Sequence record: OR958571.1
Length of the DNA stretch: 64,000 nt
Direction: 5' to 3' (one strand)
From: Escherichia phage 121/2022-2B
Positions 27,971 to 29,410 of this stretch are shown here, in pieces (the first letter of the stretch is position 1; each line of letters starts with the position of its first letter). The position numbers and the translations under genes were made by a program. Under the pieces are notes generated by a model. That model saw only the letters and a program-made list of their open reading frames with translations. It made no database searches and was not told the DNA's origin.

Positions 27971-28019
27971 CATATTAACCTTTATTCATAAAAGCATTAA
28001 AAATTTGATCGTCAATAGA
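27971..28019 (-). repeat. Direct repeat copy 2
   Basis: Near-identical to 27612..27660. Confidence 0.7.
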
Positions 28020-28622
28020 AACTTTTACTTTAGGCTGTTCTTCAAACGGTAATTCATATCCACATATTACAATTTTGTGATCGATACCAAAATACACAGA
28101 AGCAATATGATTAATATTATTTTCAGTAAAATCTAAATCAACATCAATATCTTTTTGACTAACGCTCAAAGGATAATTAATACGAATAATTCGATTATCT
28201 TTAACAAAGATTCCACCGACATACTCTGTGTTGCGTTTAAAGTTTACACGTTTCCTAAATGAAAAATATTCAGGTTCTTTATGAGCCCGACTCATAGGAC
28301 ACAATGAGTAGCTAGAATAAGAGATGTCAAATCCTACACCTTCAATATGAATATGAGCCAACGTGTCATGATTAAACCAATTATAATCATATGCCAAATC
28401 CATTATATTGTAATATGTGAAAGGCACCGGATTAACATCATGTGTTGTACCTTTAAAATCTGCCCAGGCAACGATTTCGTTATCTTTAACAATTACAAAA
28501 ATTACACCGATATGGTATCCATTATTATTTTCATTCGGCGTTATATTATAACATTGCGCATTAGGAAATTTACCATATTTAAACGGCGCGTTTTTGTGCA
28601 TGTAATAAATCATATTATTCAC
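27975..28622 (-). CDS. Hypothetical protein (215 aa), 61.2 position (possibly AdfA-like anti-DarT factor)
   Basis: Track ORF; naming by map position only. Confidence 0.6.
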   Translation of the reverse strand: MNNMIYYMHKNAPFKYGKFPNAQCYNITPNENNNGYHIGVIFVIVKDNEIVAWADFKGTTHDVNPVPFTYYNIMDLAYDYNWFNHDTLAHIHIEGVGFDISYSSYSLCPMSRAHKEPEYFSFRKRVNFKRNTEYVGGIFVKDNRIIRINYPLSVSQKDIDVDLDFTENNINHIASVYFGIDHKIVICGYELPFEEQPKVKVSIDDQIFNAFMNKG

Positions 28623-28908
28623 CTGTGATTTCGGTTACGATATTTTTGTTATTAAAGTTTTTATCGCAATACAAAACATAGTTATACTGCATCACACCAC
28701 CTGATTTAAGCTGTTTTTGTACTTCAGCTTTCATTTCAGGACGATCACGCTCAACGATATTCATAATATCCGCTTCAATTTGAGTTTCAACTTCAGTCTG
28801 ATCTGCAGTCATAGACCATTCACATAAATCTTTATCATAACCTGCCATAGCAGGCTGAGCAGCACAAGAAGCTAAAGCAAAAATTGTAGCAAAGATAAAT
28901 TTTTTCAT
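28615..28908 (-). CDS. sp: Spackle (Sp), periplasmic superinfection-exclusion protein
   Basis: 97 aa with signal peptide MKKFIFATIFALASCAAQPAMA; T4 Sp length and position. Confidence 0.85.
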   Translation of the reverse strand: MKKFIFATIFALASCAAQPAMAGYDKDLCEWSMTADQTEVETQIEADIMNIVERDRPEMKAEVQKQLKSGGVMQYNYVLYCDKNFNNKNIVTEITGE

Positions 28909-28914
28909 GATAAT

Positions 28915-28970
28915 CTCCTCAGTAGTTTATGTTTATATAGTATCTCAATTTCCAACAAAAGTAAACAGTT
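28915..28970 (-). promoter_or_regulatory. Early promoter upstream of sp
   Basis: GTTTAC-N17-ATACTATAT. Confidence 0.55.
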
Positions 28971-29226
28971 ATTTTAAAACTTCTGCGTAATCACATGTTA
29001 CAAACTGTTTCTCTAACTTGACGATTTTACGAAAATACCTTTTACACTGACGAATCTGTCGCTTCGTAGGACGTACAGCAAACTTAATAAATTCCACTCG
29101 ACCAAATGGAGGACTTTCTTCTGCTGGAATATCTAGCACCAATTCCCACGTATCTGCAATAAGTGCTTTGAATTGAGTATTTTTCCTGACGTTATACGGA
29201 GTAGGTTTAAATAAAACAATATGCAT
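28969..29226 (-). CDS. Small basic protein (85 aa), 61.4 position (possibly TifA-like)
   Basis: Track ORF; basic C-terminal region. Confidence 0.55.
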   Translation of the reverse strand: MHIVLFKPTPYNVRKNTQFKALIADTWELVLDIPAEESPPFGRVEFIKFAVRPTKRQIRQCKRYFRKIVKLEKQFVTCDYAEVLK

Positions 29227-29227
29227 A

Positions 29228-29410
29228 TTATCCTCGGCAATCTACTTCACATACTTTCTTGTCATCAATGAAAGCTTTAACTAATGCTTTATTAACTTCA
29301 GCATATTGAGTAGTAGCCCATTGAACGTCATCTTTCATCATTGTGATTTCTTTAGTAAACATACTTTCATTCTTAAACCACCCCATAAAAACTACCTTTA
29401 CCAATTCCAT
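29228..29410 (-). CDS. dmd: Dmd, inhibitor of RnlA/LsoA toxins
   Basis: 60 aa, MELVKVVFMGWFKNESMFTKEITMMKDDVQW...; T4 Dmd length. Confidence 0.85.
   Translation of the reverse strand: MELVKVVFMGWFKNESMFTKEITMMKDDVQWATTQYAEVNKALVKAFIDDKKVCEVDCRG

Follow-up and report, generated by a model that had tools for sequence, protein, structure and literature searches.

The closest described counterpart of the locus considered here is found in phage T4, where Srikant et al. (2022) termed the region the 'anti-TA island' (PMC9391042). In T4, Dmd inhibits RnlA, and RnlAB protects only against T4 that lacks dmd (PMC9391042). Gene 61.4 is tifA and encodes an inhibitor of the endoribonuclease ToxN (PMC9391042, PMC10853763); TifA binds RNA as well as ToxN, which it traps in an inactive ribonucleoprotein, and the residues changed in the named mutant K55A R56A R59A are needed for RNA binding (PMC10853763). 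The potency of TifA is set by residue 41, with F41S and F41H inhibiting more strongly (PMC10853763). In single copy, T4-type TifA with Phe41 overcomes chromosomal toxIN only and not the plasmid-borne system, against chromosomal toxIN the native tifA gene is enough, and TifA of phage RB69 has been reported as the more potent inhibitor (PMC9391042). A T4 early promoter directs the transcription of dmd-61.4 (PMC9391042).

Gene 61.2 is adfA, and its product inhibits the toxin DarT1 (LeRoux 2022, cited through PMC11257639 and PMC9391042). AdfA appears to act via an interaction with DarT1, and a two-hybrid assay showed strong association of the variant AdfA(R164H) with DarT (PMC11257639). This substitution in RB69 AdfA was selected on DarTG1; a histidine at position 164 enables neutralisation, while an arginine does not (PMC11257639). 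T4 AdfA supplied in trans restores growth of RB69 on DarTG1 cells, yet T4 ΔadfA has no phenotype on DarTG1, where AdfN (gp30.3) is the major factor, and DarTG2 is countered by neither AdfA nor AdfN (PMC11257639). AdfN and AdfB of phage ICP1 target the same defence system as AdfA but are unrelated proteins. AdfN is a NADAR ADP-ribosylglycohydrolase, an enzyme that strips the modification from DNA, and AdfA, in contrast, binds the toxin (PMC11257639); adfN lies outside the adfA locus of the DNA analysed here. The remaining characterised gene of the region, sp (61.3), encodes Spackle, which inhibits the gp5 tail lysozyme from the periplasm and serves superinfection exclusion (PMC7677548, PMC7650644).

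We analysed a stretch of 64,000 nucleotides from Escherichia phage 121/2022-2B (OR958571.1), referred to here as the window. The phage is a Tequatrovirus. On the minus strand, the ORF list gives the order helicase 41, dmd, tifA, sp, adfA, an AdfA paralog split into two ORFs, 61.1 and primase 61:

29469-30896, minus strand: helicase 41 (ORF list)
29228-29410, minus strand: dmd (61.5), 60 aa (Pfam Dmd, T4 identity, PDB match)
28969-29226, minus strand: tifA (61.4), 85 aa (Pfam DUF7279, T4 identity)
28615-28908, minus strand: sp (61.3, Spackle), 97 aa (Pfam T4_Spackle, PDB matches)
27975-28613, minus strand: adfA (61.2), 212 aa from ATG (Pfam AdfA, full length)
27616-27973, minus strand: half-size AdfA paralog, split into overlapping ORFs of 61 aa and 99 aa (phrog_4122, Pfam AdfA)
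27450-27614, minus strand: 61.1, 54 aa (phrog_1823, E=7e-34; 52/54 residues identical to T4 gp61.1)
26419-27447, minus strand: primase 61 (ORF list)

A sequence-only reading of the window had recognised four ORFs between primase 61 and helicase 41 as a cluster of T4-type anti-defence genes. All four are present where it placed them, every family match is significant, and the PHROGs assignments of dmd, tifA, sp and adfA agree with Pfam. The interval it gave (27975-29410) leaves out the paralog and 61.1, for which a Pfam search returned no family.

With the T4 anti-TA island (Srikant et al., 2022; PMC9391042) the locus shares the gene set, gene order, strand and promoter-like intergenic regions. 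Protein identity to T4 is 100% for Dmd, 99% for TifA, 95% for Sp and 96% for gp61.1, but just 75% for AdfA; T4 furthermore lacks the half-size AdfA paralog, of which the window has one, frameshifted copy between adfA and 61.1. Over the segment 27400-29500 (2.1 kb), identity is 99.6% with Escherichia phages vb_EcoM_bov9_1, bov10K1 and KMB42 and about 97% with RB51, RB68 and AR1 (96.9-99.6% across loci of the RB51/bov9_1 type). The segment matches 664 phage records in all, and the locus is conserved at 96-99.6% in more than 100 phages. In RB51, RB32, RB68, AR1 and bov9_1-type Tequatrovirus loci, gene content and order equal those of the window, paralog included. The locus of the Mosigvirus RB69 shares the adjacency of dmd and tifA, but imm and imm.1 separate sp from tifA there, a further two ORFs lie between dmd and 41, and the place of the paralog is taken by other small ORFs. 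The position of adfA between sp and 61.1/61 is syntenic in T4, RB51, bov9_1 and RB69.

At the promoter-proximal end, Dmd equals its T4 counterpart in 60/60 residues (Pfam PF17587, E=1.6e-46), and residues 1-60 match PDB 5hy3_B, 'Antitoxin Dmd' (E=1.8e-37). The proposal that a 60-aa Dmd neutralising RnlA is encoded here is thus well founded (PMC9391042; PDB 5HY3). Two nucleotides past the dmd stop codon, tifA begins; its product is identical to T4 gp61.4 in 84/85 residues, V83I being the sole difference, and belongs to DUF7279 (Pfam PF23945, E=2.3e-20, 72.7 bits against a cut-off of 24.5). It had been described as an 85-aa basic protein in the 61.4 position, with 61.4 linked to countering ToxIN, and both parts agree with what we found: the calculated pI is 9.8, with 17 K+R against 9 D+E, and TifA is the published ToxN inhibitor (PMC9391042, PMC10853763). 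According to the translation, residues 54-59 read TKRQIR, so that the central basic cluster K55/R56/R59 is kept, and position 41 is Phe, as in wild-type T4, the Ser or His of the strong inhibitors being absent. Phe41 concerns potency and has no bearing on family membership. RB69 TifA is shorter and 59% identical to that of the window. A PDB sequence search with TifA gave no match.

Two promoter-like elements lie in the intergenic regions:

29440-29468, minus strand: early-promoter-like element TTTACA, 17 nt, TG-TATAGT, upstream of dmd-tifA (promoter scan)
28937-28966, minus strand: second promoter-like element GTTTACT, 17 nt, TACTAT, upstream of sp (sequence reading)

The first is the best sigma-70-type match of the region (10/12 plus the extended TG), and the stretch between 41 and dmd in which it lies differs from T4 by one base. 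Strong GAGGAG ribosome-binding sites also occur in the two intergenic regions. The second element is followed by such a site ahead of sp, and the tifA-sp intergenic region is identical to T4 over the 68 nt compared. This element scored below the threshold of the promoter scan, and its promoter function is putative, suggested by its sequence.

Spackle is identical to the T4 protein in 92/97 residues (94.8%) and matches Pfam T4_Spackle (PF25676, E=3.5e-45, 153 bits against a cut-off of 27). PDB 6x6o is matched over residues 1-97 (E=2.1e-60), and 7cn6 covers residues 23-97. The mature 7cn6 chain begins at residue 23, in agreement with removal of a signal peptide, which the sequence-only reading had also assumed for the 97-aa protein. 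Spackle is a superinfection-exclusion factor rather than a counter-defence protein.

The AdfA assignment is equally clear at the family level. The protein matches Pfam PF23813, 'Anti-DarT factor A', with E=2.7e-133 (442.3 bits against a cut-off of 27), and the alignment is full length, placing residues 4-215 against positions 1-211 of the 211-position profile. Identity amounts to 75% (156/208) to T4 gp61.2 and 87% to RB69 AdfA. Together with the 84/85 identical residues of TifA, this bears out the homology of the two proteins to T4 61.2 and 61.4 that had been proposed. The length of 215 aa given earlier stems from an ORF that does exist and starts at an upstream GTG (28622) within the last sp codons. 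The ATG at 28613 lies one base past the sp stop codon, has AGGTGA upstream, and is the start from which relatives are annotated; most likely it is the start of adfA, giving 212 rather than 215 aa.

Residue His169 of the window AdfA (NINHIASVYF) aligns with RB69 residue 164, which is Arg in RB69. By the rule established for RB69 (PMC11257639), the window protein carries what is predicted to be the DarT1-neutralising His state. The equivalent position is H, R or N across cluster representatives, and tblastn separates three AdfA identity classes among 486 records. AdfA proteins form 16 clusters in a word-indexed search, every one at least 60% identical, and an exhaustive profile search of 1.84 billion representatives returned 6 proteins, just one of them full length. 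The family is confined to T4-like coliphages; a wider AdfA family was considered and rejected on these same counts. An AlphaFold2 model built from a 16-sequence alignment is of moderate confidence (pLDDT 67.8, pTM 0.53). The predicted N-terminal half has strands 38-43, 46-51 and 57-64 followed by helix 67-77, and the predicted C-terminal half has strands 129-138, 141-148 and 153-161 followed by helix 164-175, in which His169 would sit. A known fold was not recognised, as Foldseek against the PDB gave no match below E=0.2 (TM at most 0.26); a PDB sequence search likewise gave no match. An internal tandem duplication was rejected, since hhalign of the N-terminal against the C-terminal half reached only Prob 10% over 12 residues. 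A 'VKDN-x-I' hairpin motif is common to both halves.

The comparatively low identity of the window AdfA to T4 is explained by its first third, which is of RB69 type:

28330-28650 (boundaries approximate), minus strand: RB69-type (Mosigvirus-type) recombinant block, ~320 bp (nucleotide identity)

Within sp this block takes in the final ~35 nt, and within adfA the initial ~290 nt. Its nucleotide identity is 95-100% to the RB69 sequence and 32-70% to that of T4, and the DNA on either side is of T4 type; at sites that discriminate T4 from RB69, the window follows T4, then RB69, then T4 again. Over the 5' ~300 nt of RB69 adfA, DNA identity with the window is about 97-98%. RB51/bov9_1-type phages carry AdfA of the same mosaic type as the window (96-98% amino acid identity). 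A two-residue 'HI' duplication is present in the AdfA of the window and of bov9_1 but not in that of RB51 or T4.

Gene identity, synteny, allele states, the mosaic, the frameshift and the copy-number differences described below are direct observations. Taken together, we regard it as about 90% probable that the locus represents the T4-type cluster of accessory early genes located between 41 and 61, which has been published as an 'anti-TA island'. Three of its six genes (dmd, tifA and adfA) have published anti-toxin activity, and its content is variable. The sequence-only reading had called the locus an anti-defence island whose content differs between phages. The concept is indeed a published one into which dmd, tifA and adfA fit, and the arrangements in T4, RB51-like phages, T2 and RB69 are all distinct; Spackle, however, acts in superinfection exclusion. 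The term 'island' hence fits 3/6 genes, with Spackle, 61.1 and the paralog not being known anti-defence genes.

From what is known of the homologs, the cluster might operate as follows. The early promoter would drive dmd-tifA, and the second promoter-like element would precede the group sp-adfA-(paralog)-61.1-61. Dmd would bind and block the RNase toxins RnlA and LsoA, and TifA would bind ToxN with RNA and so trap the nuclease in an inactive ribonucleoprotein. AdfA, of which the window has an allele with the presumably binding-permissive His, would bind the ADP-ribosyltransferase DarT1. Spackle would enter the periplasm and inhibit the gp5 lysozyme of superinfecting phages.

The suggested link between 61.2 and DarTG agrees with the literature on AdfA as an anti-DarT1 factor, but it extends to DarTG1 only, and T4 does without adfA there (PMC11257639). 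An alternative is that the cluster is a conserved early accessory block inherited along with the replication genes, while protection comes from elsewhere, for example from adfN/30.3. The ΔadfA and ΔadfA ΔadfN data in T4 indicate that AdfA is unneeded against DarTG1 or DarTG2 (PMC11257639), one copy of T4-type TifA fails against toxIN carried on a plasmid, and the high conservation of the locus in more than 100 phages would also suit simple inheritance. We nevertheless consider this explanation improbable, given that native tifA suffices against chromosomal toxIN and RnlAB protects only against T4 without dmd (PMC9391042), and that T4 AdfA in trans rescues RB69 on DarTG1 cells (PMC11257639). 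Moreover, ongoing selection is suggested by the mosaic of alleles and by the occurrence of H, R or N at the key position of AdfA.

The allele states (AdfA His169 with an RB69-type N-terminus, TifA Phe41 and a T4-identical Dmd) predict the behaviour of the phage on defence strains. By inference, it should behave like T4 in being insensitive to RnlAB and LsoAB, should overcome low-level but not high-level ToxIN, and should carry the DarT1-binding type of AdfA. As a discovery the locus has little weight: what the genes do and the notion of the island were described in publications of 2022-2024, and more than 100 sequenced phages carry near-identical loci. Its practical value lies in annotation, as most database records label these genes 'hypothetical protein'. 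Modest additions are the RB69-type block in adfA, a private frameshift in the paralog and the repeat-flanked variation in copy number of adfA and the paralog.

The paralog had been described as a decayed duplicate next to the cluster. A relative of AdfA does occupy 27616-27973, but it is conserved elsewhere and is interrupted here by a single frameshift. The 61-aa and 99-aa ORFs match phrog_4122 at positions 1-56 and 35-118, respectively, and the 99-aa ORF also matches Pfam AdfA at positions 131-211 (E=1e-7). Compared by hhalign with the C-terminal half of AdfA, the paralog scores Prob 97.6% and E=4e-12 at 37% identity, and homology is limited to that half. In RB51 the gene is annotated as RB32ORF033c, 'similar to gp61.2', and its product has 118 aa in relatives. 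An uninterrupted frame of ~118 aa is absent from the window, where one additional G splits it:

27862-27865, minus strand: one-base insertion giving a G4 run (C4 on the plus strand), G3 in relatives (bov9_1/RB51 alignment)

In the records of the RB51/RB32/RB68/AR1/bov9_1 type the paralog is intact with 357 nt, and the window copy has one extra G. When one G is removed, the window paralog is identical to that of bov9_1 in 118/118 aa, with 0 nt different. The gene is present in 332 phage records, and dN/dS among intact copies is 0.04-0.26, which indicates purifying selection. The paralog is thus conserved and, in relatives, probably functional. It is not generally decayed, and the frameshift is single and private to this sequence. 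Programmed frameshifting at the G4 run was rejected by inference, as relatives uniformly have an in-frame G3 at this site and no established slippery motif can be made out.

Two origins come into question for the extra G, an inactivating mutation of very recent date and a sequencing error at a homopolymer. We see about an even chance that it is a sequencing or assembly error and that the phage encodes an intact 118-aa protein with zero decay. The insertion falls in a run that changes from G3 to G4, the gene otherwise matches bov9_1 to the nucleotide and is under purifying selection elsewhere, and the frameshift allele occurs in 0/279 phage records carrying the 81-nt stretch and has no exact match in IMG/VR. 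On the other hand, in ~50 kb aligned to bov9_1 no further isolated single-base indel falls within a coding region, the others of this kind being intergenic. Homopolymer errors therefore do not seem to be common in the sequence. Moreover, a very recent inactivating mutation would appear exactly alike.

The second possibility, a genuine and recent loss of function, is related to the architecture of the locus. The 3' tails of the paralog and of adfA, each with the junction to the following gene, form a direct repeat:

27612-27660, no strand assigned: 49-nt direct repeat, copy 1, paralog 3' tail and junction to 61.1 (repeat search)
27971-28019, no strand assigned: 49-nt direct repeat, copy 2, adfA 3' tail and junction to the next gene (repeat search)

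The two copies are 92% identical, are spaced 359 nt apart and encode a shared SIDDQIFNAFMN(K/R)G tail. The copy number of the adfA/paralog unit differs between phages, and the region varies as follows:

T4: adfA only
Window, RB51, bov9_1: adfA and paralog (frameshifted in the window)
T2: paralog without adfA
phiD1: two paralog copies recorded, with N's in that stretch, so treated with caution
RB69: imm and imm.1 inserted between sp and tifA, and several other small ORFs

The description of T2 as a phage without adfA is taken from the literature. In T4, the 3' end of 61.2 has paralog-type bases and runs directly into 61.1. A deletion between the repeats as the origin of the T4 arrangement would be compatible with this tail; it was set aside, as RB69 adfA shares the tail without having the paralog.

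On a genuine loss, the paralog would be dispensable under the conditions of propagation, and the frameshift would represent a step in the gain and loss of genes at this locus. We rate this slightly below an even chance. The natural variation in copy number (T4, T2, phiD1) and the 49-nt repeat flanking the unit speak in its favour, as does the T4 61.2 tail, which has the bases that an inter-repeat deletion would leave. Against it, the paralog has no second lesion and the allele is unique, the double copy in phiD1 may be an assembly problem in view of the ambiguous bases in the duplicated stretch, and the T4 tail may be ancestral, given that of RB69 adfA, which has no adjacent paralog.

Irrespective of its state in the window, the paralog might have a role of its own. 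Its homology is to the C-terminal domain of AdfA, which carries the specificity-determining residue 164, and it is found in 332 records, is under purifying selection and has been kept by T2. Hence, the half-size paralog could be a separate, new anti-toxin factor, possibly a module that binds DarT and is adapted to a different DarT variant, although we consider this unlikely. The paralog is without mention in PMC11257639; retained by T2, it could be one of the 'other anti-toxin candidates' expected for the region by Srikant et al. If it were such a module, the 49-nt tail repeat would allow modules to be gained, lost and shuffled by unequal recombination, and the RB69-type N-terminal block of the window adfA would be another product of such an exchange.

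Within an otherwise T4-type locus, the anti-DarT factor A gene adfA (61.2) carries a block that resembles RB69, a phage of the genus Mosigvirus, with a nucleotide identity of 95-100%.

Window 28330-28650: RB69-type recombinant block, covering the 5' third of adfA and the last ~35 nt of the Spackle gene sp

An RB69-like block in this setting implies that the N-terminal module of AdfA was swapped recently between genera. The block is common to the entire RB51-like allele class. A two-residue 'HI' tandem duplication at AdfA residues 87-90 (window 28355-28360; HIHIEG vs HIEG) is shared with phage vb_EcoM_bov9_1 (bov9_1), whereas AdfA of T4, RB51 and RB69 lacks it. 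At the equivalent of RB69 residue 164, the AdfA sequence cluster P0005 (94 member sequences) has Asn, which is a third natural state at this position beside His (neutralising) and Arg (non-neutralising).

The half-size, 118-aa AdfA paralog is recorded in two further phages.

L006, phage T2, PV648363.1, 2195-3023: paralog locus
L007, Yersinia phage phiD1, HE956711.1, 1949-2857: paralog array

According to the literature adfA is missing from T2, but the paralog is retained there immediately after sp. Therefore, the half-size paralog is kept up independently of adfA. The phiD1 record holds a tandem array of two full paralog copies and a 102-nt fragment. Because this stretch includes ambiguous bases (N), the tandem paralogs may stem from a repeat that was assembled wrongly or from a population that was mixed.

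Beside the primase gene lies an ORF without a Pfam family, which is annotated as RB32ORF030w in RB51 and as ORF029w in RB69.

Window 26222-26422, + strand: 66-aa hydrophobic ORF flanked by gene 56 and primase 61 and encoded on the opposite strand

In window 32419-33344, no homing-endonuclease gene segA separates uvsX (31237-32418) from the gene that follows it, while T4 carries segA at this position. The gene following uvsX encodes a 282-aa product that belongs to the TET-associated glycosyltransferases (PF20691, E=3.4e-10) and occupies the place annotated as b-gt in T4. These features suggest that the DNA-glucosylation gene set of the window differs from that of T4.

Compared with bov9_1, two 12-nt deletions of in-frame length are located at window positions 31224 (gene 40) and 23817, both within short tandem repeats of the ATCTAA type and the ATTTTACT type. 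In addition, the BLAST alignment to bov9_1 is interrupted five times by short stretches that are replaced or inserted.

Window 17616-17781, 37831-38047, 44523-45118, 53396-53559 and 55592-55888: gaps between BLAST segments aligned to bov9_1

Outside these gaps, the rest of the window genome is 96-98% identical to bov9_1.
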